Source of the DNA: Candidatus Latescibacterota bacterium | Lineage (GTDB): Bacteria > Latescibacterota > UBA2968 > GCA-2709665 | Assembly: GCA_965219455.1 (NCBI GenBank) | Contig: OZ244744.1 | Coordinates: forward strand, 704,001-768,000 | DNA length: 64,000 bases | Direction: 5' to 3' | In this document: one piece after another, positions 37,354 to 63,803 of the stretch | Numbering within the stretch: the stretch's first letter is position 1 | How the letters are laid out: the number at the start of each line of letters is the position of its first letter | Notes under the pieces: model-generated | The model's input: the letters and a program-made list of their open reading frames with translations, nothing else | Database searches by the model: none | Told to the model about the DNA's origin: nothing | Translations under genes and position numbers: made by a program

Positions 37354-37445
37354 GGATGTCAACCTGAGTTGAGGTTAATCGTGGTGGCGTTTTATGCGTG
37401 TGCAATGTTGCCGGGATGCTACCACCCTTAATGGTACCCGCCACG

Positions 37446-45741: not shown

Positions 45742-46878
45742 TTACAGACTTGCCGAGAAGGCCCGCAACGTCGACACCTTCTTTATACCGAGAAGTCGGA
45801 AGGACTCGGAAAACGAAGTCCGCCCTCCCAGCGTACTGGTCACCAAGGCGCCACCAAACCGCCGACCTACACGCGCCTTGAGCGTTGGATGGAAACTGCC
45901 GCCACTTTTCCGTTCGATGTTCCTTATTCGATCCAATTCCCGGCCGTAGGCTGACCCAAGCTCTTCACGGTCCAGTGCACCGACGTCGTGAAGCCGGCGA
46001 ATTACGACCAACGTGCTGACTTTGAACTCGCGAGCAAGGCGATTGAGCTGATTTGGTAGTTCCTCGCTCTCACGGTAACGCTCAAGCAAGGACGCAAGTG
46101 GCACAAGAAGCTCGGCGGCGACGCGGTTGCACCAACCCTCTACGTCGTGGACCGGCACGGAAACAGCGTCAACGTCGGAGAGCGCCGACTCACCGAGCCA
46201 GACGTGCGCGAGTTCGTGAGCCAGCGTGAAAATTTGAGCCGCCCTGGTGTCGGCGCCGTTAATGAAGACGAGCGGTGCAAGATCGTCGCTCAGGGCGAAG
46301 CCCCGAAATTCTTCGGGGTCGAGCCTGCGGTGGGTGTTGTTACCAACGATCCCGCTTGTCATAATCAATACGCCCAGCGCATCGGCCTGCTCAATAAAGC
46401 GCCTTAGTGCCTCGGTCCAGGTACGTAGACTGCGCCGCTCCTCGACGTCGAAACCCAGTTCGGCTCTAATCTCTCTCGCAGTCGTCTCAACGTCGTTTCG
46501 CGTTGTAGCGGAACCCACAAACGCCAGCGGATCTTCTCCCTCGATACGTGCAAAGTCGCGGTACCAATCCTGGCGCTGCAAACAGAGATAGACTGTATCC
46601 AACAGTTCCACACTGGGCCGTCCGACGAACTCATTGCCGATCGTTCGCATGTCAGGTATAGGGACCGGTTCATCAAGCGGCTCCGAAAGGAAGAAAGAAC
46701 CGATCGGGGCATGGGTGGCGCGGGCGAGATTCTCCAATTGCTTGAGCGTCGGCTGTCGTTCACCGCTCTCCCACTCAGAATACTTGGGAAATCGCTTTAC
46801 GAGAGCATCTACGGGAATGCCCGCGCGCTCCCGCGCCCAGCGAAATAACTCCGGTTTGACATTGACCCGCAGTGTCAT
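45742..46878 (-). CDS. XRE-HTH + ImmA/IrrE metallopeptidase
   Basis: WARERAG...WESGERQPTLKQL; FRGFAL; FTLAHELAHVWL; CNRVAAELL; AAGGAG before ATG 46878. Confidence 0.92.
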   Translation of the reverse strand: MTLRVNVKPELFRWARERAGIPVDALVKRFPKYSEWESGERQPTLKQLENLARATHAPIGSFFLSEPLDEPVPIPDMRTIGNEFVGRPSVELLDTVYLCLQRQDWYRDFARIEGEDPLAFVGSATTRNDVETTAREIRAELGFDVEERRSLRTWTEALRRFIEQADALGVLIMTSGIVGNNTHRRLDPEEFRGFALSDDLAPLVFINGADTRAAQIFTLAHELAHVWLGESALSDVDAVSVPVHDVEGWCNRVAAELLVPLASLLERYRESEELPNQLNRLAREFKVSTLVVIRRLHDVGALDREELGSAYGRELDRIRNIERKSGGSFHPTLKARVGRRFGGALVTSTLGGRTSFSESFRLLGIKKVSTLRAFSASL

Positions 46879-46997
46879 TGGAGACTCCTTAATACCTGAA
46901 TGGCGGCAACACGAACGCCGAGCGACCGGAACGTCGAGAAAACTGTAAGGGCACAACTGCCCCGTTTCATCGAACGACGCCGTGTGGGTTGAATCGC

Positions 46998-49900
46998 TCA
47001 CACGTTATTCTTCTCACCCTCCGGCTCAATGCCAATCCAGCATAGGAGTTCTATATCCTCCAGCTGGATCGGCGGAAGCGGCGCCGGCGGCGAGGTCGGT
47101 TCGAGACCGGTTTCTAGTATTCGGTCGATCACGTAACCGGCGAGCGCCACTCCCGCGTATTCATCAGAATTGAACCAGCCACGAAGCATAATCTCCTCAC
47201 GCCGAGGCCAAGGTGATTCTAGAATGTCCAGGGCACGGTTAATACGTTCGTGAGGCAGATCCGGTGGCTGATTGGCGCGGATGAATTCGGCCACACGATG
47301 ATTTAAGGGCCGAACAGCCGGCTGCAAGTTGGCGGGATCGGTTTCGCGCATCCAACTGGCCAGGATGTCCTGCTGCGCGACTTCCCAGAAATCGTAGACG
47401 CGTTCCTGAAAGTCCTCGGGTTGCCAGAGGGGTGTGTTTTCGTCGCATTCAATGAACCGAAGGCACGTACCAAGCTCGCGGACGATAAAGTCGTGGTCGG
47501 TCCTGGGTTGCCAATCGGCGTCGGCAGATATGAAACGCAGGTATGTACGTTCATACTCTGTTTCTTTTCCAATGACCGCACAGAAGAACACGCCGCGGCG
47601 CGTACTCTTTATCATTCCCGACCCTATCTTCCACGGCAATCGCACAATGCGATCCCTGTTGGCGTCGAGTGCACGTCGCAGAGTTTGCCGATACTCCTCG
47701 CCGGTCTGGGCGGCGCCGGCACTGCCTCCGCGTTCAAAGATGGTCGCATCCTCTCTCATCAATTTCTCAATTTCTTCTCGAGTTTCAGTGAAAACCTGCT
47801 CTCCGTGCGCACCGCCTTCTATTGGGGCTGCGACACCGACACTCGCCGCCGCCATCGCGAGTTTGCCCAGAATGCGTTGTTCAAGATTCAATAACTGATC
47901 GAGGCGGTCAACCGGAAAGATCGTCCGGAGGAATACACGGTCGTGTGGACTACCGATCCGGTCGATACGTCCGTGGCGTTGTACGAGCCGCATCGGATTC
48001 CACGGCATGTCGTAATTGATGATGTGGCGGCACTGCTGCAAGTTAACGCCCTCGGCAAGCACGTCCGTAGCAATCATTACGTCGTAAAGATCTGCATCTT
48101 TACCGGCCGGCGCTTCCATTGATACAGGCGCAAATCCGTGTACCGCGTGCTGGCGAGAAGGCTCGTCCAAATCCCCCGAACCGCTCACAGCGACGATTCG
48201 ATTTTGGTATGGGCCGAGTTCGTGGCACCTGGCGACTTCACACTTCAGATAATCTCTAATCCAAGAGACGGTATCTTCAAAGAAAGAATATATAATAACC
48301 TTGCGCTTCTGCGACTCGTCCACGTCGCTTGAAGCCTCACGCTCTGCCTGTTCAACCACGTCAACGAGCGCGTCCGTCAACGCCCTTAGTTTGGGATCGC
48401 TTTCCGGTGCGATCGCACGCGCATCTTCAGCAAGACTGCGGAGAATGCCCCTGTCGCGCTTCACGGCTTGTCGCAGGCGACCGACATCGTAACGCGACGC
48501 ATCGCTTCGCTCGTCCGTCGCTTCGAGAAGATCCTCAAAAACGGTTTCATCGTCTCCTGAGATCTCTCGCAAAAATGCCGTCGTGACGAAGTATCCGGCA
48601 TCAAGGGAATCGAGAAAGACGTCGTGCTCGTCGGCCATCTTGTCAACAGTTTTACGGAACGCGAACGCCGAGGATTCGAACCGCTTCAGCAAGCCAGAGC
48701 GAAGAAGCCCAACCATCGCGCGAGCACGAGCATCTTCTTCCGCGTCGCCACCATCTCGCAGATAGGCTTCGGGCATATACCTTGCGAATGTGAGAGCACC
48801 TTCTTCATCCGAATCAAGCGCTTCTTCCAATCGGTCAAAAAAACCAGGCATCCTGTCTTCAAGCTCGTATCGGACACTGATCGCTGTGGGATGAGGAAAA
48901 ACGATGGGCTGCGGTCTGCCGTCTGGACCGGAAATGGTGTCTCCTGCGTAGTACTTCTTTACGAATTGGCGAGTCCTTTTCACGGTTGTAGCATCGATGA
49001 TTGGATATAGCACATCGGGGCTAAGGCTGGACGGGTCCGTACGCATTGCTTCTTCAAAGCGTTCCCGAATTGATAGAATGCCCCGGTCAGCAAGATGCGC
49101 GTCCTGACGAAGAAAGAACCGGATGAGATGGTAGAGATCCCAGAGGGAATTGTTGACTGGAGTTGCGGTGAGGAGGAGAAGGTCGCGCTTTTGTCCGAAA
49201 AGCAGCCAGCGCAATGCAGCGGCTCGTGTTGGCGCGTCCGGATTCCGATAATTGTGGGCTTCGTCGACGATGACAAGCTGATATTCTCTCAACGACCGCT
49301 GGAGGTGCTGCTGATCGGCGTTTGGACGGTGTCTATTCCTTAACTGGATATCTCCGGCCAGTTGTTCGAACGAAAGACATTCGACGAAGAGTTGGTAAGT
49401 ATTGATAAATCTTTTCCAGGTCGTGTCGCGCAGCGATGCCGGGCAAATCAACAAGGCGCGTTGGCGCCGTTCCTGATATCGCTGCAGAATCTCGCCGGCG
49501 ATGAAGGTCTTGCCTAAACCCACTTCGTCAGCGACAATGACACCGCCGGTTTCACGCATCAAGCGGAGTGCGCGAGCAACTCCATGTTTCTGAAAACTCG
49601 TCAGGGGGAGATTTTCATCGCTCTCGACATCGTCCTCGACCTCATCACCGTAGAGTTGCCAAAGTACGCGAACGAAAACATCCCACGGTGGTCGCGGTTG
49701 AAACACGACTTCGAACATTCCTACCAGGTCGTAGGGTTCCGCTTCGTCCCACAGTTCATTGAACCAATTCCTGGCTTTAGCGACGATGGGACCATCGAAG
49801 CGACCCAAGTTCAATTCAAGGTTTTGCGTAAGACCCGCTCCGGTCAGGTTGGAAGAACCGGCAATGATTCCCCTCGGTCCGCCAGAGGCTTCATCGGGCG

Positions 49901-50369
49901 ACGAGAAGATATATGCTTTTGCATGCAGAAATGCCTTCTCGTAACGCCTGACTTCCATGTTTCCGGCCCGAAGTGACTGGATGAGCTTGGACAGTGCTGT
50001 GCCGCTTGTTCTATTGAATGGCAGGCGATCGCGGTCTCGCTGCAGGCCCTCCGTCAGGTTTCGCAAGCCTGTCTCAACGCAACGCCTTTTGTACCCGTCT
50101 CGCGTCTCGTCAAGCCGTTTCCGGTATTCCAAAGCGCCCGTAGATAAATCCGCGCCAAGCAACAGGCGCACCTCAGGGATGGAGTGAAGGTGATCCGCGA
50201 TGTGTGCGAATCCGGTCGGACTAAAAAAAGCGGTCGCGATGTTGACTTGATCGGGTGTGCCGGCAGTTTCTGTCTTGCCAATCTCATCCGCAACGCCCAG
50301 CAGTGCCGCTAACGCATTCGCAAGCGTGTTGCCATCACGGTTGTCAATAAACGCGTGTTCCCGGGTCAC
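46998..50369 (-). CDS. PLD-nuclease + SNF2-family helicase
   Basis: HAKAY...GSSNLT...NLELN; ADEVGLGKT, DEAH, TATP, EGVNLQ, QRHGRIDR. Confidence 0.92.
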   Translation of the reverse strand: MTREHAFIDNRDGNTLANALAALLGVADEIGKTETAGTPDQVNIATAFFSPTGFAHIADHLHSIPEVRLLLGADLSTGALEYRKRLDETRDGYKRRCVETGLRNLTEGLQRDRDRLPFNRTSGTALSKLIQSLRAGNMEVRRYEKAFLHAKAYIFSSPDEASGGPRGIIAGSSNLTGAGLTQNLELNLGRFDGPIVAKARNWFNELWDEAEPYDLVGMFEVVFQPRPPWDVFVRVLWQLYGDEVEDDVESDENLPLTSFQKHGVARALRLMRETGGVIVADEVGLGKTFIAGEILQRYQERRQRALLICPASLRDTTWKRFINTYQLFVECLSFEQLAGDIQLRNRHRPNADQQHLQRSLREYQLVIVDEAHNYRNPDAPTRAAALRWLLFGQKRDLLLLTATPVNNSLWDLYHLIRFFLRQDAHLADRGILSIRERFEEAMRTDPSSLSPDVLYPIIDATTVKRTRQFVKKYYAGDTISGPDGRPQPIVFPHPTAISVRYELEDRMPGFFDRLEEALDSDEEGALTFARYMPEAYLRDGGDAEEDARARAMVGLLRSGLLKRFESSAFAFRKTVDKMADEHDVFLDSLDAGYFVTTAFLREISGDDETVFEDLLEATDERSDASRYDVGRLRQAVKRDRGILRSLAEDARAIAPESDPKLRALTDALVDVVEQAEREASSDVDESQKRKVIIYSFFEDTVSWIRDYLKCEVARCHELGPYQNRIVAVSGSGDLDEPSRQHAVHGFAPVSMEAPAGKDADLYDVMIATDVLAEGVNLQQCRHIINYDMPWNPMRLVQRHGRIDRIGSPHDRVFLRTIFPVDRLDQLLNLEQRILGKLAMAAASVGVAAPIEGGAHGEQVFTETREEIEKLMREDATIFERGGSAGAAQTGEEYRQTLRRALDANRDRIVRLPWKIGSGMIKSTRRGVFFCAVIGKETEYERTYLRFISADADWQPRTDHDFIVRELGTCLRFIECDENTPLWQPEDFQERVYDFWEVAQQDILASWMRETDPANLQPAVRPLNHRVAEFIRANQPPDLPHERINRALDILESPWPRREEIMLRGWFNSDEYAGVALAGYVIDRILETGLEPTSPPAPLPPIQLEDIELLCWIGIEPEGEKNNV

Positions 50370-50466: not shown

Positions 50467-51873
50467 TTATAATTCCGTCGAGGTATTCCCCGTGTCCGCC
50501 AAGAATTCCCGTAACTGCTTCAGTTTTTCCAACAGTTCGTCAAAAGTCACGACTTCAACGTCCTTAGAATTACGGCGGAAGAGCTCGAAGGATTTCCTTT
50601 GATCTTTCTCGGACGGCGTAGTCCCTATTACTAAGCAGCAATTAACCGAATACGATTCAATATCGTCGATGTTGCTATTGTGCTTTATCTGGGCAATTTG
50701 ACTTTGAAATTGATATTTCTGATCAAGAGTCTGTGCGATTGATGCAGAGAGATCATTCGTTGGAGGGTAAACCCCTTCTCGGTACCGATTCTTTCTGATA
50801 AGCTTTGTCTGGGGCTTCTTAATCTCAATGATCGCTGTGTTATCTGTAAGACTGTTTTTAACTAGAAAATCAGCAATCTTGTCCCCTGATCCCGACAACT
50901 TGCGCCCGCCGACGGAAGCCTGATCTTGTACTTTTATTATCGGATAACCGAATACCAAACCTAATATGAACGGATTCTCGTTGAATAGTATTTGCCAGCT
51001 GGATTCACTTGCATTTCGCTTGGCCATTCCTTCATAGCGTTTAATGAATCGTTCTAAGGTAACCAGCTCGATTTCACCTTGAAGCTTTGCCAGTTTCTCC
51101 GGCTTTCCATCTGCAATAGCGCGCGAATTGTGTTCGATTGCTTTAAGCAACGCCTCTTGGTCTTCTTCTTGAAGAGCAGCATTTTCTCCTTGGGCAGCTG
51201 CTGCGAATAACTCGCGCAGTGGATGTCGTCCGCGCTTAATAGGTCGTTCTCGACTTCCAATCGTCTTCGCCACTATGTTGTAGGCAGTATTCTCCTTGAC
51301 AGTAAGCGCGGCATCCTGAGTGTGAGCTGTAATCCTGTTTAGACTTTTTCTAACCTCTTCGAAAACAGCATGTGCAATGGAAATGGTCTTGTCATGCTGT
51401 TTAACACGGGTCGGTATGGATTTTACGATTACGATTTCTTGGCAGTCTGTAAGATCCTCGATAGCTTCCACAAGAAATCTATACTCATATTTAAAGCCCA
51501 ACCCGAGTCGGAAATCTTTCTTAAAGCCGGCGGGCAGATGAGTAAGCAAATGCTGTATCCCATTTTCGGAGATTTCTTCCACGCGAGGCAGTGGAAATCC
51601 ATCTAAACTGATCCTCCTTATCTTTCGGTGCGCCGGCTTAAACTTGCCTAGCTCGCTGCCTGGCGCACGAGTTGGTGTGACGCTAATTGATCCGTCGAGA
51701 TTATTGAATTCCATCAACTTAATAGTAAACTCAGCGCCTTTGCCTTCGCTCGCTGGCTGCTGAAATGGTGGCTCCCGGGGAACATAGAACACCTCAAAGC
51801 ATTCGCAAGACGTCTGCTCTATTACTAGATCCCCAAGCTTGAAGCCTTTCGCCAGTAAATCACGTATTGACAT
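50467..51873 (-). CDS. sduA: Shedu anti-phage nuclease SduA (DUF4263)
   Basis: ESSWQILFNENPFIL, IADFL, IIEIKKP, Q..DQ, LVIG, TFDELL; lower GC than neighbours. Confidence 0.9.
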   Translation of the reverse strand: MSIRDLLAKGFKLGDLVIEQTSCECFEVFYVPREPPFQQPASEGKGAEFTIKLMEFNNLDGSISVTPTRAPGSELGKFKPAHRKIRRISLDGFPLPRVEEISENGIQHLLTHLPAGFKKDFRLGLGFKYEYRFLVEAIEDLTDCQEIVIVKSIPTRVKQHDKTISIAHAVFEEVRKSLNRITAHTQDAALTVKENTAYNIVAKTIGSRERPIKRGRHPLRELFAAAAQGENAALQEEDQEALLKAIEHNSRAIADGKPEKLAKLQGEIELVTLERFIKRYEGMAKRNASESSWQILFNENPFILGLVFGYPIIKVQDQASVGGRKLSGSGDKIADFLVKNSLTDNTAIIEIKKPQTKLIRKNRYREGVYPPTNDLSASIAQTLDQKYQFQSQIAQIKHNSNIDDIESYSVNCCLVIGTTPSEKDQRKSFELFRRNSKDVEVVTFDELLEKLKQLREFLADTGNTSTEL

Positions 51874-52365: not shown

Positions 52366-55300
52366 TTAGCGCCGTTTGTGGCTCCTCAATGCTTGGAAGT
52401 GGCGTCGCACTCCGTCGAGACGCGCCTGATAGTCCCATCCTTCGTGGAAGGTCTCGAAGATATGAACGAGTTGGGATTCGCTCAAACCGTACAGATGGGC
52501 GACCACGGCGTCCAACTCGTGGATCATGTCCTCCTTCTCATCGGCGCCGAGGGGACCCCAGTCGACCCCTACGGCTTGTGCCCAGTCAGCGAACCTCCCG
52601 TCAGGGCAGGCAAGACGACCCGCTAGTTGCACGGCACACTGCCAAAGTGTGCTCTTGCGGTCGGGACGAGGAATTGGAAACGGGTTGATAATGAAAAAGT
52701 TGAGATTTACCTCAACAAAGCGCCGTGCATACCAATCAAGAGGGATGGATGATAGGATACCTAGCAAAAACGCCTTATCCTGTTCGTCCCCACGTGGCCA
52801 GAGGAAATATGGCGCAGCGTTTGTGATAAACACATCCGATGGAACGAGGGCTACCCGGACCGTTCTGGAGTCGGTGGCTCTAGCGACGTTTCTAAAAGCT
52901 ATTCTTGGAATGAAACAGGCAAGGGTCTTTCGATTGCGCAAATAATGAGGTAGAAACTCACTATGAGCGCTGTCGCGCCTTCTGTTGCCAGACTTTAGGC
53001 GCTTGGATTGAAGCCACTGGATCACCGGTTTTGGATCCGCCCATGCGTAGTAGGTGCCCGTGTCCGGAATCCACAGATCGAAGGACTCGCCTTTGTAAAC
53101 AGGCCAGTATCCGTCCGGGCAATCCTCGCTACTCAGGTCCATAAGGTTTTTTTGGTTGGTTGCATCAAGCTCCCGGTCCGGCCGAGCTCTCCAGTGTGGC
53201 TCCATATCTAGGTCGAGCCGCGGATGCTTTCGAAGTTGTACGAATATCTCTATTGATTCGTCGTTCGGTAACAGTGGCAGCGAGGCACTGTCATTCCAGT
53301 TGCGCACCTCCGTATTGTAGAACGCGGCAGTCTCTTTGACGACTCCATCGTCGAAACCGGCTTTAGTCGAATAAGGACCGTGCAATCGGATGGATTTTTT
53401 CCACGGTGTACCGCGCACACTAGACACAAGACCAATCGAGTATTGTGGATGTACGTCTGGGAATACCCAATGCCGGTTATTGACCAACGTGGTCACATTG
53501 ACGGACGCGGAGCCACCTAGAAGGGCACGCCGGAAGTCTGCGGATCCTTTTGCGGCAAGCGCACCACGTGGAAGAACGACCCCAATCCTTCCTTTTTCGG
53601 GTACTGTCAGGTGCCAGAACCTCCAGCAAAACGCCTTGTAAAGGTCGGGATCTCCTGTGCTCATACCACTATAGTTGCCACTCACCAGTGCTTTGCGCAT
53701 ATGTTCACACTCCGCCAATTCCTCCTCATAGAGCGACACGAGGTCAGGGCGTTCTTGACGTAGCCTTTCCTGCTCCAACACTTGCCTGCGTTGCGAAAGG
53801 GATCGCAGACCTGGGAAATGGCGAGTCCAGAAGGACCTTTCTTCTGCCCTTTGCTCCTGCCACGGCGGGTTGCCGAGGATCACATCGAAACCATGCCTTT
53901 CGCGAAGGAAGACTTCCGGAAAAGCCACGGGAAAGTGGAGAGCCTCTAGGGCATCCAGATCTCGTCGCGCTGTGCGTACACTCTCCAGAGCAGACGCGTT
54001 GTCCGCGATCTGTTCCCAAGTCTCAAGGGGGAAACGTGTAACCGCTGGGTCGTGGGAAATGTACCGCGCTACAAGTAAATCGCAAAGCGCTCTTGTGTTC
54101 CGGATGGCCTCTTTGGCTTCGATTACCGCATCTCGCGCAGCCGAGATGTCATCCAGAGACGCGTCGTTAAGATTGGCAAGCCTCGTCAGTGGCTTAGCGG
54201 CTCGTCCGAGCAAGGCATCTGCATCGAGAAAAGCAAGTATATTCTGAATCCCCGGATCGTCAGCAGTATATTCCTGATACCTCTGCCTTATTTCATCGAG
54301 CGTGCCAATACCGACAAGTGAGTTGCCCTGAACCAGATTGTGATCCAAAAAGGAGAGGGGCAATCCGGGTACGAAGGTGTGAATCCACACAGCCAGCCGC
54401 CCAAGTTGCACCGAAAGTCTGTTTAGATCGACGCCATAGATGCAGCGTCGAGCGATCAGGCGCCGCAACAACTGACCGTCCTCGATCGTCGTGCTTTCCC
54501 CAAGATCTCCTAGCTCTCGGATCGCAACCGTTTTTAGATCCGCGAGTTCACGGCGAACCCCGGGCAAATTGCGGGAAGCCATATACCCAGCCATGCGTTT
54601 CTCAATGTGGTCAATCGCCCCAATGAGGAAATGGCCCGAACCCATCGCGATATCCGCTACGCGAAAGTCGAAGAATGCCTTGGCTGCGTTCGCGTCATCC
54701 ATCTCATCAAGGCGCTTAAGATGATCGGCAAGGGCGGGCTCCAACGCCCCATTCAGCAAATGTTCTACAGCGAAGGGCTTGGTGTAGTAACTTCCAGAAG
54801 ATTTGCGAGCGCCCGACCGGTTGTGCAGATACGTTTCGCCGGTCGATACGTTAGGTTCCTCCATTTGGCTCACAGGCGCATACACGAATTCGCCCTTTTT
54901 CTTCTTTAGGACAAGATCGCATTCGGCAACTGCCAACTCCGATTCGAGGAGGCCTTCGTAAATTGTGCCGAATTCGCGCACACCCAGCGAGCGAAAGTCG
55001 ACAGGTCCTGGAACACCCTCCGATGTCTCGATCACCATCAGATGACGAAGTGCGCTCTCGAACCTCTCATTCGGTAGAGTAAGGGTAGCGAGTTCCGCTC
55101 CTGTCGGCGACACGGCGATGTCACTGTCGAAGAGGCCCCCGTTGTAGGCTGGTACCCCCCATTCTGTATTACCATGGGCAATCGCCTCCCAAAGCAGATT
55201 CGTTTCCTGCCAGTGGGCACTTCCAGATGCAATCGGCGTTTCAGTTGCGACGGCATTGGCGAGTTCCTGCGCTTTTTGCTTCAGCGACCGACGCCGATAT

Positions 55301-56433
55301 GCGTCATTGAACCGATAGGGCAGCAGATCGCGGTCTTCCGCGTACGCGATGAATAGCAATCGAAAGAGCACTGTCAGTGCCATTTCGTACGTGACGTGAA
55401 GATCCTGTGGCCGAGGTTGTTCGATGCCCCGAGCGTCTGCAATACCCCGGGCAAGTTCTGGGACCACGTGGTCGTAAATTCGCTCCCGAAGCCGCTCTGC
55501 CAGATCCCCTGCGAAGCGCTGGGATCCTTCCATGGCCTGTCGCAAGCTACCGTCCGGAGTAAGTGCCTCAGCAGAATAGAGCAGCCAGAGATATGCGAGG
55601 TGTGCTTCAGCGAGTAACGAAGGTTGACACTCTATATAGGTTTCTGTTCGTCCGCGACGACCGACCCCGGCGTGAACATCAGTAGCGTAAAGGCGAATAC
55701 GGCTGCCGTGAGTTAGCACGACCCAAGGCAGATTCTCATCGTCAGCCTTTTTCAGGGCGTAGCTTATAGGCGACAGGCTGTTAAACCGTTCGGAGCCGGC
55801 TTCCGCCGCCTCGCTTTCCCGCAACATAACGGCGAGCGCGGTGCGACGGTCGCCGCTGCGCAGAAGACTGGTCAGATTGTCAAGTGGCTCCACCGAGAAG
55901 CCAAGGCCATTCAGCAACTCCCCGTCTCGCTTGTTCAGTACCCCGGCGGCCTTGTGCGCCGCCTCGGACCAGTCCTGGCGCTCCGGTACGCCCCGCTCCA
56001 ACTCGTGAAGGGCGAGCAACCCTTCGTTATTGAGACCCGGAAGGGCCGTTTCCAACGACGGAAGGGCTTGCGACAAGAACAGAAGCGCCGCGTGTCTATC
56101 CGGCTGGGCTAGGGCCTCACGGCATAGGCGTTCAACCTGGCCGATCTCCATTTCGGGATATACCGGCGGTGACTCTCCGGTAGGGCCACACAATGTGGCC
56201 CTACCGGAATGCAGTACTACAAGAAGCACGGGAGCCGCACGCCCGCCCTTCCGGGTCTTCCAACAGGCGACTATTGCCGCGCGAGCGGACGGCTTTGCCG
56301 CCACTGCAACCGCAACCTCAATGGCATTCGAACCGTTGCCGACGAACAGTCCAGCGGGCTGAAGCCCGGACTTCACATCGGTCGACCACGGTCGTGAAAT
56401 TATATTGGTAAGAAACTCGATTTCTACGGACAT
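52366..56433 (-). CDS. Eco57I-like (type IIG/PglX-like) N6-adenine DNA methyltransferase with TRD
   Basis: RLLFIAYAEDR, YNGGLF, GSYYT, DIAMGSGHFL, YGVD, GNPPW, FRNVARATDSRT. Confidence 0.92.
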   Translation of the reverse strand: MSVEIEFLTNIISRPWSTDVKSGLQPAGLFVGNGSNAIEVAVAVAAKPSARAAIVACWKTRKGGRAAPVLLVVLHSGRATLCGPTGESPPVYPEMEIGQVERLCREALAQPDRHAALLFLSQALPSLETALPGLNNEGLLALHELERGVPERQDWSEAAHKAAGVLNKRDGELLNGLGFSVEPLDNLTSLLRSGDRRTALAVMLRESEAAEAGSERFNSLSPISYALKKADDENLPWVVLTHGSRIRLYATDVHAGVGRRGRTETYIECQPSLLAEAHLAYLWLLYSAEALTPDGSLRQAMEGSQRFAGDLAERLRERIYDHVVPELARGIADARGIEQPRPQDLHVTYEMALTVLFRLLFIAYAEDRDLLPYRFNDAYRRRSLKQKAQELANAVATETPIASGSAHWQETNLLWEAIAHGNTEWGVPAYNGGLFDSDIAVSPTGAELATLTLPNERFESALRHLMVIETSEGVPGPVDFRSLGVREFGTIYEGLLESELAVAECDLVLKKKKGEFVYAPVSQMEEPNVSTGETYLHNRSGARKSSGSYYTKPFAVEHLLNGALEPALADHLKRLDEMDDANAAKAFFDFRVADIAMGSGHFLIGAIDHIEKRMAGYMASRNLPGVRRELADLKTVAIRELGDLGESTTIEDGQLLRRLIARRCIYGVDLNRLSVQLGRLAVWIHTFVPGLPLSFLDHNLVQGNSLVGIGTLDEIRQRYQEYTADDPGIQNILAFLDADALLGRAAKPLTRLANLNDASLDDISAARDAVIEAKEAIRNTRALCDLLVARYISHDPAVTRFPLETWEQIADNASALESVRTARRDLDALEALHFPVAFPEVFLRERHGFDVILGNPPWQEQRAEERSFWTRHFPGLRSLSQRRQVLEQERLRQERPDLVSLYEEELAECEHMRKALVSGNYSGMSTGDPDLYKAFCWRFWHLTVPEKGRIGVVLPRGALAAKGSADFRRALLGGSASVNVTTLVNNRHWVFPDVHPQYSIGLVSSVRGTPWKKSIRLHGPYSTKAGFDDGVVKETAAFYNTEVRNWNDSASLPLLPNDESIEIFVQLRKHPRLDLDMEPHWRARPDRELDATNQKNLMDLSSEDCPDGYWPVYKGESFDLWIPDTGTYYAWADPKPVIQWLQSKRLKSGNRRRDSAHSEFLPHYLRNRKTLACFIPRIAFRNVARATDSRTVRVALVPSDVFITNAAPYFLWPRGDEQDKAFLLGILSSIPLDWYARRFVEVNLNFFIINPFPIPRPDRKSTLWQCAVQLAGRLACPDGRFADWAQAVGVDWGPLGADEKEDMIHELDAVVAHLYGLSESQLVHIFETFHEGWDYQARLDGVRRHFQALRSHKRR

Positions 56434-57640
56434 AATTTTCCGATTGCCCTCGTCTATTTCTCGTTGTGAGCAGTGTACCGTTAGTCGTTAAGTTCCGCCA
56501 GATATTTACCGAAATTTAACACTCCACTTGACTCGAATATACTCTTCCAGATATCGTCCATCTCGATCTGACCGCGAGCGTTGAGGACATGGATTGCGTA
56601 TAGATGCTCGGTCTTCAGGGCACATATCTCGCTCAATTCTGAGGCTGTCCTCCAATTGTCACTGAATGCGTCTGGGCGGTCGTGGACCGGCTTCTCAACT
56701 GCGCTATTGCCAACAAATATGCCCTTGTATTTCTTTTGTCTTTTGGTGCGTCCGCGATCGATCCACTCCAATAGCTGTTTCCTGCCATCCTCGCCAAACT
56801 GATCCCGTCGGGTACTCTTAATTTCAAGGACACCCTCGTATGTCTTATCGCCCACTTTAACAACCAGCCAGCCGTCCTCTTTTCCCTTTTCTTTTGGATC
56901 CTCCACGTCAGCGCCCAAACTGCGCAGGGTGTCTCTTACTATCGGTTCAAGCGCGTATTCTTTCTCATATAGCAGCTTAAGACATTCTCGACAATTCGTT
57001 CTCTCGAAATTTGCCAATTCCAGATTATTGTTCAACGCAGAAAGCTCTGTCTCAATTCTCGTGATATCATCGTCAACTTTGTCTTGTCCCGGGGCCATAT
57101 ACTCGCTTAGCCACTTTGGCTCCGGCAGGTCTGTTTCGATTCCGATGCACGAAAGCATCAACTGTATGGTCTCTTCCTCTGAAACGGATAGTTCAGGAAG
57201 AAATACCAACGGACCGAACTCATTGTCGTCGTAAAACAAATGGAGTGTGAATGCGAGTGCGTATTTGTATCGGTTTCTGCAGAAGACATCTCGTCTGAGT
57301 TCAAACTTGCCTTGCGCGGACTGTTTGACGTATTTACCAATCGTTTCGTAGTCTAATTCCGCCCGAAACAGTGAGTAATTCCATTTGGAAAATCTCGCGA
57401 TATATTCAGAATACTGTTCGCTTCGATAGTCGAATAAATGGGTTATCGTGTCACCTGCATTAGAATCCCACATAAATTTCACGCCAGTCCACTCCAAGAA
57501 TGGAGCGGCGTCTTGTTGCTCTCCTACGTTCACGTTGTTCCCTTGATTCTGCGGAGAATCGACTAGCGAAGTATTAAACCGCGGGTCTCCGACTACGAAG
57601 ATCGATCCGCCGTTTATGAGAATATCGATGGTACCACTAA

Positions 57641-59321
57641 CCCCAATTATTCACAAAAAAGGTAGTTTCCTTACCCAAGTCATTGTATTATATTATGGTT
57701 AGGCGAATAACCATACAACAATGAACTGGGAGGAAACTACCGTGGAAGTTCAAGATAGTCAACTCGCACTTCCTTTCGCAAGTGTTTCGGGCAAACCGGT
57801 AGAAGCCGTCTTCGATGGCGGTGTGCTCACCAGCGATATCGGGTTGATGCTGCTCCGAGAGGTGGCGTCCAAAATCGGCATCCTGTCTCGGATCGTCGAG
57901 GCGTTAACGGACCGTCGGCATCCAAGTTATGTGGATCACACGATGATGGACCTGATCAGCCAGCGTGTCTTTCAGATCGCGTGCGCGTATGAAGATGCGA
58001 ACGATTGCAATGCGTTGCGCGAGGACCCTGCGTTCAAGGCGGCCTGTGATCGGTTGCCGATATCAGGGGCGCCGTTGGCCAGCCAACCCACGATGAGTCG
58101 ATTGGAAAACGGGATTCGTCGCAGGGACTTATATCGTATTGCCGAGGCCCTTGTGGACGGATTTATCGCGTCCTACGATAGGCCTCCCGACGCGGTCGTT
58201 CTGGATATCGATGACACCGATGACGAGGTTCACGGCAAGCAACAGTTGTCGTTGTTCAATGGCTATTACGATGAACGCTGTTACATGCCCTTGCACATTT
58301 ATGAAGGCCGGACAGGAAGACTGATCACGACGCTGCTGCGTCCGGGCGCCCGTCCTACCGGCAAACAGATTGTCAGCATTCTTAAGCGACTGGTGAAAAT
58401 CCTTCGTGAGGCGTGGCCGGACGTGCGACTCTTTTTGCGTGGCGATGGCCATTTTTCCTGTCCTGAGGTCCACGACTTTTGCGACGAGCAAGACGTGTAT
58501 TTTGTGCTGGGACAGACGGGCAATGCCAGGCTTGCACAACGGGGACACGCGTTGATCGAGCAGGCAAAGGCCCAGTATCGGGAAACCGGACAGCCCGTGC
58601 AGTTATTTACCTGTTTCGCTTACCAGGCACATACCTGGGCCGTGCCAAGACGCATCATCTACAAAGCTGAAATCACCGCTTCCGGACAAGCCAATACACG
58701 CTTTGTCGTGACCAACCTGAAAAGTAGCCAGCCCTCATTCATCTACAAAACCGTCTATAGCGCGCGCGGCAGGATGGAAAACTTCATCAAGAATCACAAA
58801 ACCTTCCTCCATTCCGATCGTACCTCCTGCCACACCTTCGAAGCCAATCACTTCCGTCTCTTCCTGCATAGTGCCGCTTATGTCTTGATGCATACCCTTA
58901 CCGAAAAAGGACTCCGGGCTACCCAGTGGACGCACGCCCAGTTTAATACCATTCAGAATCGCATTCTCAAAGTCGCCGGGCGAGTGTCCGAACTCAAGAC
59001 CAAAATCAAACTCCATTTGCCAACATCATTTCCCTTGAAACACCTTTATGACACCATCCTCTGTAATTTGGCAAAGGCATATCCATAACGCCGTTTCACG
59101 CCGGCCGATCCATCCCTTTCTCATCGCCACAAAGTAAGACCAAGGCATCCGTCTGTCCTTTCCAACCACAAATCAAAGAACTCGACACCCCTCAATGCTG
59201 ACGGCACATCCAAAATTACTCATCATCGCGTCACCAACACGTCATTCGGATATTTTCCCTTCTACAGATCACTTTCTATTTCCAAAAACACTGTTCCGTT
59301 CAGTTTCATGAATTAGTCAGG
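57641..59321 (+). mobile_element. Complete IS1380-family element, 1681 bp
   Basis: Imperfect IRs CCCCAATTATTCACAAAA / CCTGACTAATTCATGAAA; 4-bp CTAA duplication at 57637-57640 and 59322-59325. Confidence 0.93.
57721..59088 (+). CDS. IS1380-family DDE transposase
   Basis: FDGGVLTSD, YEDANDC, SQPTMSRLEN, LDIDDT, HGKQQ, RGDGHF, YSARGRMENFIK. Confidence 0.95.
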   Translation: MNWEETTVEVQDSQLALPFASVSGKPVEAVFDGGVLTSDIGLMLLREVASKIGILSRIVEALTDRRHPSYVDHTMMDLISQRVFQIACAYEDANDCNALREDPAFKAACDRLPISGAPLASQPTMSRLENGIRRRDLYRIAEALVDGFIASYDRPPDAVVLDIDDTDDEVHGKQQLSLFNGYYDERCYMPLHIYEGRTGRLITTLLRPGARPTGKQIVSILKRLVKILREAWPDVRLFLRGDGHFSCPEVHDFCDEQDVYFVLGQTGNARLAQRGHALIEQAKAQYRETGQPVQLFTCFAYQAHTWAVPRRIIYKAEITASGQANTRFVVTNLKSSQPSFIYKTVYSARGRMENFIKNHKTFLHSDRTSCHTFEANHFRLFLHSAAYVLMHTLTEKGLRATQWTHAQFNTIQNRILKVAGRVSELKTKIKLHLPTSFPLKHLYDTILCNLAKAYP

Positions 59322-59901
59322 CTAAAATCGAGGAGAGTACGGAATCGAATCCACGCGACTTTTTCGCATTCGTCAATACTGGTAAGAGGTAAAAGGTTGA
59401 AAATCACCATGTCGTAGTCACGTATGTTTCGGATCTGTGCGAGTTGGGACCAGTGGAAGCAGTCAATCTGAAGATCCGTAGTCGTACGTTCGAAACCCTT
59501 AGCCCCGAAAATTATGACTTTTCGTTTGCGTGAAGCCATTATAAACGTGCCCCTCTATTAATACAAGATACCATCCAGTTTCCTGTGAATGGTGCACAGC
59601 CCCAGACCGCTCAGCTATCCAGTCAGGCGGACATAAATTCGATCAATTTGAACTTGGGACGGATCCCAAATGGGATCATATCAAAACGTTTCTCAATTGC
59701 AAGTCTGTCGTTTTTCTAAAAATAGCCCGTACGTCCACGATCTACTTCGCGAAGAACCCGGCGTCCTCGCTAACGCGGGATTTTAGCGCGGCTATTGATG
59801 AGTCGGAGTCCGATTCTCCGGTTTCGTTGTCGCGCCACAGAATCTACATCAGCCCGATCAAAGAAACCCGACCACCGTAATTCCCGTCGCCATCGAAAAG
59901 G

Positions 59902-59920
59902 TGTCGCAAATTGCGACAGT
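59902..59920. repeat. TGTCGCAAATTGCGACAGT palindrome, copy 1
   Basis: 7-3-7 inverted repeat; identical 19-mer at 63702-63720. Confidence 0.85.
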
Positions 59921-59964: not shown

Positions 59965-61155
59965 CTACGATGACGACACCGTGGTTGCTCTTTCTCTCGC
60001 TTCCCCCGCCACAGCGACGATGTAGTCAGCGGCTCTGGTTAATTCCTGTCGGCGCAAAAACAGTTGCGTACCGGTCGGATTGACCAGTCCAGCATCCACC
60101 AGCAGGCCGTGTCTACCCCCATGATCTATCGACTGTGTCTTGATAAACTCAGCCAAGGGCTTCCAAGAGCCATGTTCTATAATGCATCGTCTATAACATT
60201 CTGCCAAGACGCGAATAAAGCCGACGTTGTAGGCAAACGTGGCGATACGAAACTTTGGGATCTCGTCGTCATCTATCGTCCCCGACACGAGGCCACCGTA
60301 TTCCTCTCTAGCGGCGGGCATGAATTCGTCGGCCCAGACGCGGCAACGCTCGTACAGGCTATCGATATCTATAATGTAGGTTGCATTCAGTTCCCGGCTG
60401 ATCCGCTTTCCATAGCCGACCTCAAGGTTCTTCAATATTGCGGCAAGCTGATTGACAGCCAGCAGATGATGGCTCGACGCGGCAACTGAGGATCGCTCGA
60501 ATTCGACTCTTCCACCGAACAAGCGGCTATTCTTGGCGAGGCGAACCGCCGTGCGATTGAAAGCATCTCGTTGATCGAACCTCGTAACGGTATGACCCTC
60601 AATGCGCTTGTTTTTCGATGCGTCGACGAACATCTGACGTAACGTCTTAATGTCGTCTTCTGCGTATAGAACTATGGTCATCGACGCGTTTCTCAGGGAC
60701 TCGAGTTTGTGCGCCTGTGTCTCGCCGGGCGTACTCGACAGATCGGCGAGAACGTCCTGAATGGCCCTTCGGCGGTGCTGGCCGTCGAAGATTTTCATTG
60801 TGTTGACACGGTTCGTGAGGATACGTAATTCACCGAAGTTCGGGTTGCCCGGCTCGTCGGTATCGTCCGTGTAAGGGTTGAATACCACCGCACTGGGGGC
60901 TATCCCAAGCAACAACGACCCCAACTGCCAATTGTCATGTTCTTCCAAGTATGTCTTGATTGCTCTCGCGTGACTTGGGGTAAGCCTCCGGTTCGCTTCT
61001 CTCACTACGTTGTCCTCCACACGCTGTGGCAACAGGCCATCAAGCGTTTCCAAATCGAGTGAGAAGTAATACACGTCTCGGCCTCCTTGCCGAAACCGAT
61101 GGGACGGAACCCGCAGGCTGTATTGGTTTTCCATTGGACCGATTTTTAGCGCCAT
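59965..61155 (-). CDS. DGQHR/DndB-like (ParB-fold) protein
   Basis: FRQGGR, ANRRL, IFDGQHRRRAI, QMFVD. Confidence 0.9.
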   Translation of the reverse strand: MALKIGPMENQYSLRVPSHRFRQGGRDVYYFSLDLETLDGLLPQRVEDNVVREANRRLTPSHARAIKTYLEEHDNWQLGSLLLGIAPSAVVFNPYTDDTDEPGNPNFGELRILTNRVNTMKIFDGQHRRRAIQDVLADLSSTPGETQAHKLESLRNASMTIVLYAEDDIKTLRQMFVDASKNKRIEGHTVTRFDQRDAFNRTAVRLAKNSRLFGGRVEFERSSVAASSHHLLAVNQLAAILKNLEVGYGKRISRELNATYIIDIDSLYERCRVWADEFMPAAREEYGGLVSGTIDDDEIPKFRIATFAYNVGFIRVLAECYRRCIIEHGSWKPLAEFIKTQSIDHGGRHGLLVDAGLVNPTGTQLFLRRQELTRAADYIVAVAGEARERATTVSSS

Positions 61156-61202
61156 CGTAAATCTCCATTATGATTCTCGCCTAACCACAATCCTGCTACT
61201 CT

Positions 61203-62783
61203 CTATCGGGATGTTTGTATCTCTGCCAGCTGTACGATGTAGTCGATCGCATCCAAAACGAGACTTTGACGAGCCTCAGGTGAAGTACCACCGGGAGCGA
61301 CAACCCCGGCATCAATCAACAAGGAGCCTTTGGTGACGCCCGGCTCAAGTGATACGCCACCCAGGAATTCAGCTAACGGCATCAAATCGGCTCCATCTCT
61401 TGTCCACTCATAGTAGCAGCCAGCCAGAATTCGTATAACTGTTGCGTTATAGGCCATCGTGGTTGTGCGTTTTTCGGGGATTTCGGAATTATCTATCTCT
61501 CCCGCCATGAGGTCGTTGTACTCGCTTCTTGCGGTTGGCATGAAGTCGTCTGCCCATGTCCAGCACCGGTCGTACAGCGAGTCCAGATCCAGCATGTATT
61601 CATCATTCCTTTCTTTTCTGACGCGGCCCTTATAACCAACTTCGAGCGTTTTCAGTGTCATCGCCAACTGATTAATGGCAATGATCTTTTGGCTGCTCCT
61701 GGGGACGGATGAACGCTCCATTTCGACCCTGTCGGCGAATAGATCGCTATTTCCCGCAATCCACAATGCAGCCAAATTGAACGCGTCTCTCTGGTCAAAT
61801 CTGGTTACTGTGTTTCGCTCAATGGCTCTGGTTTGCGCCGCATCCGCGAACATCTGCCGTAAGGCTTTAATATTGTCCTCGACATAGACCATCACCGGCA
61901 ACGAAGATTCTCTCAATGCCGAGAGTTTCTCGGCATAGCGCATGTTGTGTGAAAGTTCGAAAAGGACATCTTTAATTGCCCGCCGTCGGTGCTGTCCGTC
62001 AAACATCTTCATGCTCGCAAAAGCATCAGTCCGAATTCGTAACTCGCCTACTGAACTGATTTCATTTGGCTCTTCCAAATACGAGCGAAAATCGACAGCC
62101 TTCGGAGATATACCCAGCAATAGCGTTCCGAGTAACCAATCGTCGCGGGTTTCCAGATATTTCTGAATTTTCTTTGCATGACTTGGTGTCAGTGGACGGT
62201 TAGCGTCTTTGACGACTCTATCGTCCACACGGTCGGGCAGCTGTTTGTCCAAGGTCTCGAGATCAAGAACGAACGCATATACGTCCCGTCCACCCTGCCG
62301 AAACCTGTGGGCGGAAGTCACAAGTGGCATTAACTCGCGCCTGATCGTCTCAATCGCTTGACACTTTGCGGACTCATTGATCGCAGTAAGTACCTTTGCG
62401 ATATCCGTCAGGCGTTCACATACGTTCTCTACCTCCAGGTCTTCGAGTCCTGGATGTGCTGCGTCGTTACGCGCCTTGGCAATCCTATATAGAGTGTCCC
62501 AAGGCTTTTTGACTCGTTCAAGCACACCAGAAAATGCGTCATTCCAATATCTTTTCACAAGTGGGTAGAAGTCGGTGATGTCTATTGCCTCATCAACTGT
62601 GCGGCCTGTACTCAAGTTCTCCTCGAACTGGTTGTACCGATCATCACGCAGAGCGGCACGTATATGGTCGTCCACGGTGCCACCACGTACACGCTTAAGG
62701 CAGCGGACGATGAATGGTCTCATCGCGTCGCGATATATGTCTAGCGCATCAGTCAGAGCCTTACGATTGGGCCGTCCAGTCAT
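61203..62783 (-). CDS. Swt1-like HEPN domain fused to DGQHR/DndB-like domain
   Basis: ALDIYRDAMRPFI...WNDAF...RNDAAH (Rx4H); then FRQGGR, ANRPL, MFDGQHRRRAI; GGAGG before ATG 62783. Confidence 0.88.
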   Translation of the reverse strand: MTGRPNRKALTDALDIYRDAMRPFIVRCLKRVRGGTVDDHIRAALRDDRYNQFEENLSTGRTVDEAIDITDFYPLVKRYWNDAFSGVLERVKKPWDTLYRIAKARNDAAHPGLEDLEVENVCERLTDIAKVLTAINESAKCQAIETIRRELMPLVTSAHRFRQGGRDVYAFVLDLETLDKQLPDRVDDRVVKDANRPLTPSHAKKIQKYLETRDDWLLGTLLLGISPKAVDFRSYLEEPNEISSVGELRIRTDAFASMKMFDGQHRRRAIKDVLFELSHNMRYAEKLSALRESSLPVMVYVEDNIKALRQMFADAAQTRAIERNTVTRFDQRDAFNLAALWIAGNSDLFADRVEMERSSVPRSSQKIIAINQLAMTLKTLEVGYKGRVRKERNDEYMLDLDSLYDRCWTWADDFMPTARSEYNDLMAGEIDNSEIPEKRTTTMAYNATVIRILAGCYYEWTRDGADLMPLAEFLGGVSLEPGVTKGSLLIDAGVVAPGGTSPEARQSLVLDAIDYIVQLAEIQTSR

Positions 62784-62895
62784 CTCGCACCTCCAGGTTG
62801 AGAATCTCCCACAGTGATGACAAATCACACATTTCACTCGAACCAGCCAGAAAACATACCGATTCTGGCAAACATCCGATGCGGCGGTTATTTCT

Positions 62896-62925
62896 AATTT
62901 AACGTTTTACATTGTCTGTTGTCAA
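62896..62925 (-). promoter_or_regulatory. Sigma70-like promoter for the DGQHR pair
   Basis: TTGACA-18 bp-TAAATT in an AT-rich region. Confidence 0.5.
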
Positions 62926-63347: not shown

Positions 63348-63533
63348 CTACCTGAGTACGCTCTCATCGTTCCCATCACCGCTTTCTTCAAGGTAAAGAG
63401 TCGTGGCCTCTTTGAGGTTTTCCAACGCTTCCTTCGGGGAAGTGCCCTGGCTTACCGTACCCAATGCCGGACAATCGGCAACATACAAATCATCCTCTTT
63501 TGTGATCACCGCGGTTAAATTTCTCGCTGCCAT
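63348..63533 (-). CDS. hicB: HicB-family antitoxin-like protein, no hicA seen adjacent
   Basis: AVITKEDDLYVADCPALGTVSQGTSPKEALENLKEA..LYLE; GGAGG RBS. Confidence 0.85.
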   Translation of the reverse strand: MAARNLTAVITKEDDLYVADCPALGTVSQGTSPKEALENLKEATTLYLEESGDGNDESVLR

Positions 63534-63701
63534 TGGATCCTCCTGGAGAATCATTCGTCGTAACAAAATCCGGCAAATCCACGAAAAATACTGCATTTGG
63601 TGACTGTTTATCGCCCTCATTGCGAATATATCATACCGGTCAGCAGTGTGCAATCAGTTTTGTAGACTTGGACACCCTCATCGCAACTGACGGTGAGCAA
63701 C

Positions 63702-63720: not shown

Positions 63721-63803
63721 GACAGGGTTTCGGGTTTCCCTTTGTGTCTTTGTGTCTTCGTGTGAGAAAAGCCACCGGTTACTACGAATGGGTGAGGTGA
63801 CCG

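Follow-up and report, generated by a model that had tools for sequence, protein, structure and literature searches.

The DGQHR proteins DndB and DpdB (family PF14072/TIGR03187) exhibit the ParB/Srx fold and the DGQHR pentapeptide, which is nearly invariant in the DGQHR/DndB superfamily (PMC4619093), and a DndB-like protein binds both ATP and GTP (bioRxiv 10.1101/2025.10.10.680097). Among other ParB-fold nucleoside triphosphatases (NTPases), DUF262 provides both the sensor and the NTPase function of SspE and GmrSD (PMC10952713, PMC12065111), SspE and GmrSD/BrxU read phosphorothioated (PT) or glucosyl-hydroxymethylcytosine-containing (glc-hmC) DNA, and in Dazbog and Menshen (Millman et al. 2022) defence requires the ParB-fold NTPase, which is the presumed sensor (PMC10952713, PMC12065111). 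Combinations with a HEPN domain are likewise on record: PD-T4-2 (Vassallo et al. 2022), a validated anti-phage system, is listed under DUF262 and HEPN (PMC10952713), and Table 1 of Anantharaman et al. 2013 (PMC3710099) lists a Swt1-like HEPN domain fused to ParB (Saro_3948) as ‘mostly active’. Here we analyse two adjacent genes, gene A (a HEPN-DGQHR fusion) and gene B (its DGQHR paralogue without HEPN domain), located at positions 59965–62783 of a stretch of 64,000 nucleotides from a Candidatus Latescibacterota bacterium (‘the window’; bases 704001–768000 of a genome that consists of a single contig of 5,844,228 bp and is 100% complete by markers). While HEPN-ParB fusions and defence by a ParB-fold protein with HEPN are known, the paralogue pair is apparently new and, judged from sequences and models, represents a well-supported candidate for a defence system with an unusual heterodimeric sensor. 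The reading that we favour, and to which we give an even chance of being correct, is that A and B make up a bicistronic conflict module of candidate defence type (anti-phage or anti-plasmid) that is self-contained, moves horizontally and operates with a heterodimeric sensor mechanism.

Both genes are arranged head to tail and occupy the minus strand, as do all features of the pair given below. Gene A (61203–62783, stop codon included) has an ATG start and encodes 526 aa, gene B (59965–61155, stop codon included) encodes 396 aa, and a spacer of 47 nt (61156–61202) separates them, with a GGAG 7 nt upstream of the ATG of B. A GTG at 62837 is a formally possible alternative start of A; we prefer the ATG at 62783 because 27 homologues start at the equivalent position (alignment A1) and a GGAGG is located 6 nt upstream. 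The proteins are 54% identical across 371 residues (E 4e-135), and the original prediction of two tandem paralogues 47 bp apart, made from the nucleotide sequence and its open reading frames (ORFs), was thus correct. In Pfam, A matches (i) HEPN_Swt1 (PF18731; E 5.4e-9, 36.8 bits versus a cut-off of 27.5, profile positions 2–115 of 115), which corresponds to an N-terminal, Swt1/Abi2-type HEPN domain (62325–62783, residues 1–153), and (ii) DndB (PF14072; E 5.1e-40, 138 bits versus a cut-off of 29.1), residues 154–526 (61206–62324) comprising the DGQHR/DndB (ParB-fold) domain and a C-terminal helical region. PF14072 is the sole Pfam match of B (E 1.2e-37, 130 bits versus 29.1), and the NCBIfam model TIGR03187 (DGQHR; cut-off 58.85 bits) scores A at 106.6 and B at 95.9 bits. 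Translation confirmed the DGQHR motifs of A (61986–62000, D262–R266) and B (60772–60786, D124–R128) as well as the Rx4H motif RNDAAH of the HEPN domain (62454–62471, R105–H110), which, together with the PF18731 match, substantiates the Swt1-like domain with intact RNDAAH that had been seen in the first gene. Profile scores and pentapeptide place both proteins in the DGQHR/DndB domain superfamily, and profile, Rx4-6H motif and helical fold place A in the Swt1/Abi2 clade of the HEPN superfamily. Hence, it is shown by computation that A and B are DGQHR proteins of the DndB branch (ParB/Srx fold) with intact nucleotide-binding signatures.

These signatures are kept throughout the family. DGQHR occurs in each of the top 120 relatives of A and of B (120/120 in both cases), and RNxxxH in all 120 of A; R105, N106, H110 and the stretch FDGQHRRRA are invariant in the alignment of A homologues (A1), as is DGQHR, along with all nucleotide-binding signatures, in the alignment of 29 B orthologues (A2). 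At the C-terminus each paralogue has a signature of its own, namely PG..[ST]P (115/120 relatives of A, 1/120 of B) and RRQE (114/120 relatives of B, 1/120 of A). The best 120 relatives have median lengths of 525 aa (A) and 388 aa (B), and neither paralogue looks degenerate. Among 8000 candidates scored per search, 946 relatives of A and 898 of B were obtained at E ≤ 0.001, counted as clusters at 90% identity that in each case include the paralogue and more distant DGQHR proteins; one NCBI record labels the family just ‘DGQHR domain-containing protein’. In three of the 29 B orthologues (P0125, P0151, P0195; alignment A2) an acidic tail ends in D-V-P-W or D-V-A-W. Acidic C-terminal tips serve SSB-type proteins to recruit partners, and the tails of B recall these.

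The pair recurs as a unit. Eleven other loci were compared, that is, six from Nitrospinota, Dehalococcoidia and Chloroflexota assemblies (L004–L009), two in the phylum of the window, one on a metagenome contig and two from a class sample, and in 11 of 11 the first-type gene is followed by the second-type gene on the same strand, so that the two-gene architecture proposed from the window holds elsewhere. The spacer measures ∼29–57 nt in the seven other loci in which both gene ends are unambiguous, and B of L005 was found intact by family search. With shared ‘longest contig’ lengths taken as an approximate measure of how often both genes share a contig, 51 lengths are identical between the top-120 lists of A and B, 44 of these being at least 10 kb. 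Within a locus, A and B are 41–57% identical, and the A-A and B-B identities across 11 loci co-vary with a Mantel r of 0.88 (1 of 5000 permutations as high). In a quick maximum-likelihood tree (99 rows, LG+G4, supported by the Shimodaira-Hasegawa-like approximate likelihood ratio test, SH-aLRT, only, and with six distant outgroup rows that do not fall on one side), (i) all 31 HEPN-fused rows constitute one clade (SH-aLRT 99), (ii) the sister group of this clade consists of the first genes of two pairs without HEPN (92), (iii) the B rows, the second genes of the HEPN-less pairs and C-terminally fused forms constitute another clade (87), and (iv) the A-type and B-type clades are united at 97, with single-copy relatives outside. 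This topology suggests one old duplication and a single gain (or a single loss) of HEPN. On the evidence of these comparisons, the pair is an old, co-inherited unit. The single-copy DGQHR relatives that branch outside the pair (L058:8325–9491, L059:8562–9749, and one at a contig end in L060) are 41–43% identical to the core of A, and the one in L059 has as its neighbour a protein of 674 aa that contains a TatD DNase domain.

Distribution of the pair is patchy: it was found in full in three of 168 genomes of the window's phylum, in none of 14 other genomes of the genus, and, in a sample of 401 genomes from the class of L005, in four, HEPN being absent from one of these. The pair has transposases next to it in the window, L004, L038 and L056, and its neighbours differ in every locus examined. 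The patchiness argues for horizontal movement. A scan of metagenome contigs added one locus only.

Independence from dnd genes, and thus the status of the pair as a self-contained unit, is supported by the complete genome, in which A and B themselves are the only two DndB-family matches. DndC (TIGR03183) and DndD (TIGR03185) yielded no match genome-wide, nor did DndE (PF08870), the latter being a weak negative as the control of that search matched nowhere. No dnd genes were found in the window itself or within 18 kb past its edge, the dndFGH families not having been searched genome-wide; past the edge of the window follow a small HicB-like ORF, a 246-aa ORF of no known family, PolX and metabolic genes. 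The lack of dnd genes noted originally for the window therefore extends to the whole genome for DndC, DndD and, with the said weakness, DndE, and none were found in the 18 kb that follow its edge.

How, then, does the pair relate to the systems introduced above? It is not DndB or DpdB proper, since both equivalog scores and gene linkage fail: A and B score 62.3 and 51.5 bits against 328 for DndB (TIGR03233), without linkage to dndC, dndD or dndE, and 30 and 22.4 bits against 300 for DpdB (NF041060), the other dpd genes not having been searched genome-wide. Unlike DndB and DpdB, A and B constitute a paralogue pair, one member of which has an N-terminal HEPN domain. SspE, GmrSD/BrxU and DndI, among which SspE, DndI and BrxU provide the nearest solved folds to residues 164–321 of A, act as dimers that couple an NTPase sensor to an effector; they are, however, homodimers whose chains themselves carry a C-terminal DUF1524/HNH DNase, whereas the pair combines an N-terminal HEPN with a paralogue partner. 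Since neither A nor B matches DUF1524 (or GmrSD_N), a GmrSD-type enzyme was rejected, the resemblance being confined to the fold of the ParB-like core. PD-T4-2 follows the same logic of a ParB-fold NTPase with a HEPN effector but belongs to DUF262 (the DGQQR branch) and has a HEPN of another family (PF18735), and the passages devoted to it in PMC10952713 describe no paralogue pair; Menshen resembles the pair in its swappable effectors, but Dazbog and Menshen, as outlined in the same sources, represent another ParB branch with other partners (an ABC ATPase and an effector in Menshen). Identity with any of these three was dismissed, as A and B do not match their PADLOC models (PD-T4-2, Dzb, Nsn) at E ≤ 0.1. 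A HEPN-MNT toxin-antitoxin system was discarded as well, the partner being a DGQHR paralogue and no MNT having been found in the flanks. The domain architecture of gene A is that listed for Saro_3948 (PMC3710099), itself a possible member of the DGQHR subfamily; the passages on this one-line catalogue item mention neither an obligatory HEPN-less paralogue nor an operon, heterodimer or helicase subtype.

At E ≤ 0.1, A and B match only the DndB and DpdB models of PADLOC v2.0 (2023), and these weakly, and the protein models of this resource thus do not recognize the pair as a distinct system. No description of a paralogue-pair system was found in the literature searched, although subscription journals and supplements (e.g., Additional file 1 of PMC3710099 and the supplements of PMC10853773) could hold one. 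The original designation as a ‘new’ module consequently survives for the paralogue pair, but not for the HEPN-ParB fusion, which is catalogued, nor for ParB-fold plus HEPN defence as such; and the caveat attached to it, that existing systems might already cover the pair, was justified in view of Saro_3948 (PMC3710099) and PD-T4-2 (PMC10952713).

Structure prediction agrees with the domain assignment and suggests a defined complex. The AlphaFold2 model of A has a mean predicted local distance difference test (pLDDT) score of 69.9, with ∼86–94 over residues 10–150 of the HEPN domain. The best structural matches of residues 4–153 obtained with VIA-align are PbAbiF (8vz6_B; Z 8.7, root-mean-square deviation (rmsd) 3.3, 141 aligned) and the C-domain of yeast Swt1 (4pqz_A; Z 8.7, rmsd 3.1, 123 aligned), followed by other HEPN chains such as those of Csm6, AF_0298 and sacsin; these AbiF/AbiD (Abi2) and Swt1 proteins differ from A in their partner domains. 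Residues 164–321 match SspE (6jiv_A; Z 7.1, rmsd 3.4, 128 aligned), DndI (9jfl_A; Z 5.9, rmsd 3.8, 122 aligned), BrxU (7p9k_A; Z 5.4, rmsd 3.7, 119 aligned) and PadC (6ryk_B; Z 5.2). As Z-scores under ∼13 can be common with VIA-align, especially for helical bundles, these matches corroborate the profiles without constituting proof; a PDB sequence search with the profile of A gave no match at E ≤ 1, Foldseek with the whole model of A against the PDB nothing at E ≤ 0.001, and the ESM Atlas DndB-type clusters only. At the level of domains, structural matches were obtained with VIA-align alone. For the A:B complex, an ipSAE of 0.76 was obtained (0.77, 0.75 and 0.76 in the individual runs) versus 0.00 for the best of three controls; in calibration, 116 of 157 solved complexes but only 2 of 215 mismatched pairs attain this mark, counts that apply roughly here since A and B were modelled with alignments of our own. 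The runs have at least 91% of contacts in common, with a partner pLDDT of at least 79. The predicted interface is pseudo-symmetric (A 157–174, 205–222, 289–318 and 491–511 versus B 17–34, 65–82, 153–182 and 356–371), takes in the paralogue-specific tails (PG..[ST]P in A 491–511, RRQE in B 356–371) and leaves out the HEPN domain. A heterodimer is thus predicted to form through the DGQHR domains, and the position of HEPN outside the interface fits a role of the HEPN-less paralogue in keeping HEPN monomeric; that B restrains HEPN dimerization is nonetheless what we infer.

Variants of the pair in other genomes indicate which of its parts are constant. The first gene has no HEPN domain in L009 and L038, where a superfamily 1 (SF1)/UvrD-like helicase of 755 aa is divergently adjacent (L009:5610–7877 and L038:1053–3320, both minus strand); in L005 and L008 HEPN is present and a helicase orthologue of 764 or 773 aa follows B (L005:10840–13134 and L008:10876–13197, both plus strand), overlapping it in L008. 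The four helicases (∼760 aa) are mutually 54–56% identical, and their first ∼200 residues match no family. (The search for this helicase in the genome of the window gave no match at E ≤ 1e-5 but had no positive control and so shows nothing.) The HEPN-less sister subtype with its conserved SF1 helicase suggests that HEPN is an exchangeable effector attached to a sensor core whose two paralogues are constant, and, since this subtype keeps both paralogues, that B is a sensor partner and more than a mere antitoxin. The HEPN module itself (residues 2–152 of A) is 38–50% identical to the N-terminus of ∼1100-aa HEPN-DUF499 proteins from many genomes, an architecture of the Ava_2192 type reported from restriction-modification (R-M)-like operons (PMC3710099), and is, as these identities indicate, a shared cassette. 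HEPN_Swt1-DUF499 proteins of ∼1100 aa with 46–50% identity to the HEPN of A (L035, L013–L027) occur commonly in two genera within the phylum of the window; the one at L035:5854–9183 (minus strand) is followed by an AAA_15/AAA_21 ATPase (L035:4182–5795, minus strand). Among B-like relatives, C-terminal extensions comprise Mrr_N (P0244), HARE-HTH (P0257) and a region of weak similarity to a KorB/ParB helix-turn-helix (HTH) domain (P0242), which point to DNA as the ligand; the B protein of the window has no HTH extension. Three further B-like proteins (P0241, P0256, P0265) have C-terminal extensions of 120–310 residues with no family above threshold.

HEPN RNases build their active site from two HEPN domains, so that a lone A:B heterodimer, having only one, should be inert. 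It is then tempting to speculate that the DGQHR heterodimer acts as a nucleoside triphosphate (NTP)-gated sensor that engages invader DNA, possibly in modified form, a role suggested by analogy with DUF262 of SspE and GmrSD/BrxU and by the ATP/GTP binding of a DndB-like protein. The single HEPN per heterodimer would keep this domain silent, and trigger-dependent assembly of at least two heterodimers would bring two HEPN domains together and turn on RNA cleavage, which might lead to growth arrest or abortive infection. The more far-reaching proposal, that the two DGQHR paralogues form an obligate heterodimer serving as an asymmetric, nucleotide-gated DNA sensor with swappable effectors (HEPN RNase or SF1 helicase), and that they thereby represent an undescribed defence family in which HEPN is licensed by assembly, is advanced tentatively, as possible yet somewhat doubtful. 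For the original notion of a nucleotide- or DNA-sensing switch, the self-contained nature of the pair, its conservation in other genomes, the defence island, the intact motifs and the predicted heterodimer speak in favour, whereas its pure toxin-antitoxin version is weakened by the HEPN-less loci.

Several points weigh against this favoured module of sensor and effector. HEPN domains can be RNA binders instead of RNases, and we infer both that DNA is what the pair senses and that assembly activates it. The DGQHR part of the monomer model of A is moderately confident (pLDDT ∼45–75), and given that the solved structures of SspE and BrxU, relatives with DUF262, are dimers, and that A is a paralogue of B, the favourable score of the A:B complex may only mirror a family-wide mode of homodimerization. 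No fusion of A and B was found among longer proteins (23 hits, all HEPN-DUF499), which, being weak evidence as a failure to find, offers no Rosetta-stone support. In PADLOC, the matches of A and B to DndB (73 and 66 bits) and DpdB are weak and the only ones, and thus no validated relative anchors a role in defence. The neighbourhood speaks in favour of a defence context insofar as, besides the island of the window, a PADLOC match at E ≤ 1e-8 lies within 6.5 kb of the pair in nine of the 11 other loci, a count for which no background rate was computed; against it, L007 and L056 have no such neighbour within that distance. Specific candidates are HEC-02B (482 bits, L004), PDC-S15 (L006), a PD-T4-4_A-like ATPase (L009), PDC-S32 (182 bits, L036) and PDC-M44B (212 bits, L037); the remaining neighbours are the conserved helicase or generic ATPase, helicase and TnpB domains. 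Finally, none of 40 pattern matches on IMG/VR viral contigs is a relative, although this does not constitute evidence of absence from phages.

Three other explanations were weighed against the conflict module. As a toxin-antitoxin or addiction system, A would be a HEPN RNase toxin and B a paralogue-derived, sequestering antitoxin, with the two stabilizing a mobile element. HEPN toxins are indeed common in toxin-antitoxin systems according to PMC3710099, the predicted A:B heterodimer is tight, the two-gene operon has the putative toxin first, and insertion sequence (IS) elements lie next to the pair in three other loci as well as in the window. Yet B is a full-length paralogue with invariant nucleotide-binding signatures (DGQHR in 120/120), unlike a simple neutralizer, HEPN is located outside the predicted interface with B, and B-like proteins gain DNA-binding HTH domains; moreover, two loci retain both paralogues without HEPN, so that the partnership does not exist for the neutralization of HEPN. 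We thus consider addiction an unlikely explanation.

A modification-dependent, type IV-like sensor, in which the DGQHR pair reads modified phage DNA and then fires HEPN or recruits the helicase, would narrow the favoured reading rather than oppose it. The nearest folds of residues 164–321 of A, namely SspE, DndI and BrxU (Z 7.1, 5.9 and 5.4), are in line with such a function, albeit with Z-scores in the range that VIA-align calls common, and so are the Mrr_N and HARE-HTH domains of B-like relatives, which PMC10853773 ties to modified-DNA recognition, even though B of the window has no HTH extension; for Dazbog, DUF262 is suggested to recognize methylated DNA (PMC10952713). Pfam identifies neither DUF1524/HNH nor another DNase in A or B, and overall such narrow specificity for modified DNA seems improbable. 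The differing neighbours in every locus examined and the patchy occurrence (3/168, 0/14 in the genus, 4/401) are in turn difficult to reconcile with a DndB-like pair of transcriptional or nucleoid regulators with a housekeeping role (e.g., regulating the type IIG R-M system), in which HEPN would be an RNA- or nucleotide-binding module. DndB being an ATP-modulated repressor (PMC10853773, PMC12065111) and PF14072 being the sole strong family for the core lend this idea some appeal; with DndB equivalog scores of 62 and 51 bits versus a cut-off of 328, no DndC, DndD or DndE match in the genome (the DndE search being weak) and the catalytic RNxxxH invariant in 120/120, we nevertheless judge it very unlikely.

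The pair is located at the edge of a defence island (33452–56433, minus strand) which comprises genes for a type IIG R-M enzyme (52366–56433; 1007.7 bits), Shedu SduA (50467–51873; 495 bits), an HKD-SNF2 helicase (46998–50369) with an M78 peptidase (45742–47001), a PDC-S62-like protein (42002–44002), a WYL-WCX regulator (36391–37362) and a 927-aa IetA-like protein with three AAA modules (33452–36235), all on the minus strand. An intact IS transposase (DDE_Tnp_1_4; 57721–59088, plus strand, 513 bits), around which no clear terminal inverted repeats were found within 57400–59500, and an ORF of 350 aa (56481–57533, minus strand), which immediately precedes the type IIG R-M gene on its upstream side, stand between the pair and the rest. 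The island claimed originally is therefore real, with the pair at its margin. The 350-aa ORF has no Pfam or PADLOC match even at E ≤ 1, and since the 350-, 77- and 101-aa ORFs that flank the pair have neither a counterpart in the six loci L004–L009 nor a family above threshold, they are not counted as parts of the system. G+C content is 0.49–0.52 at the pair versus 0.58–0.64 in the first 30 kb of the window.

A promoter-like TTGACA-18-TAAATT (62896–62925, minus strand; 10/12 matches) ∼110 nt upstream of A and a terminator-like hairpin (59902–59918, minus strand; 7-pair stem, T-rich tail) 47 nt past the stop of B bracket the two genes, both being weak indications: the region has seven promoter-like sites versus a mean of 5.6 in shuffled sequences, i.e., no excess, and eight terminator-like hairpins versus 4.9, a weak difference counted as no excess. 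Upstream of the pair, a small ORF (63348–63653, minus strand) with weak similarity to DUF7387 (E 0.0011) and HicB (E 0.12) is followed by another such hairpin (63284–63254). AbiF is a dimer bound to a noncoding RNA (ncRNA) in 8vz6, whereas no repeat array or ncRNA of this kind was found at the pair, where the search returned a trivial 8-nt repeat (63740–63763) and a sub-threshold miRNA match, both taken as chance. One 285-nt contig of a sponge metatranscriptome run is identical to 60547–60831 inside B; as DNA can be present in RNA libraries and no other part of the pair is covered, this is not regarded as evidence of expression. The complete stretch is contained in several runs from 2025, among which the source of the assembly may be found.

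A sensor role of ParB-fold NTPases is becoming apparent in several defence systems, with SspE, GmrSD/BrxU, Menshen, Dazbog and PD-T4-2 as examples, and the coupling of nucleotide binding to an effector is understood in few of them. The family of DGQHR pairs, which is common in environmental bacteria, adds a two-gene case in which the sensor is apparently a heterodimer of paralogues and an effector that requires dimerization is present once per heterodimer, and thus offers a directly testable rule of activation.

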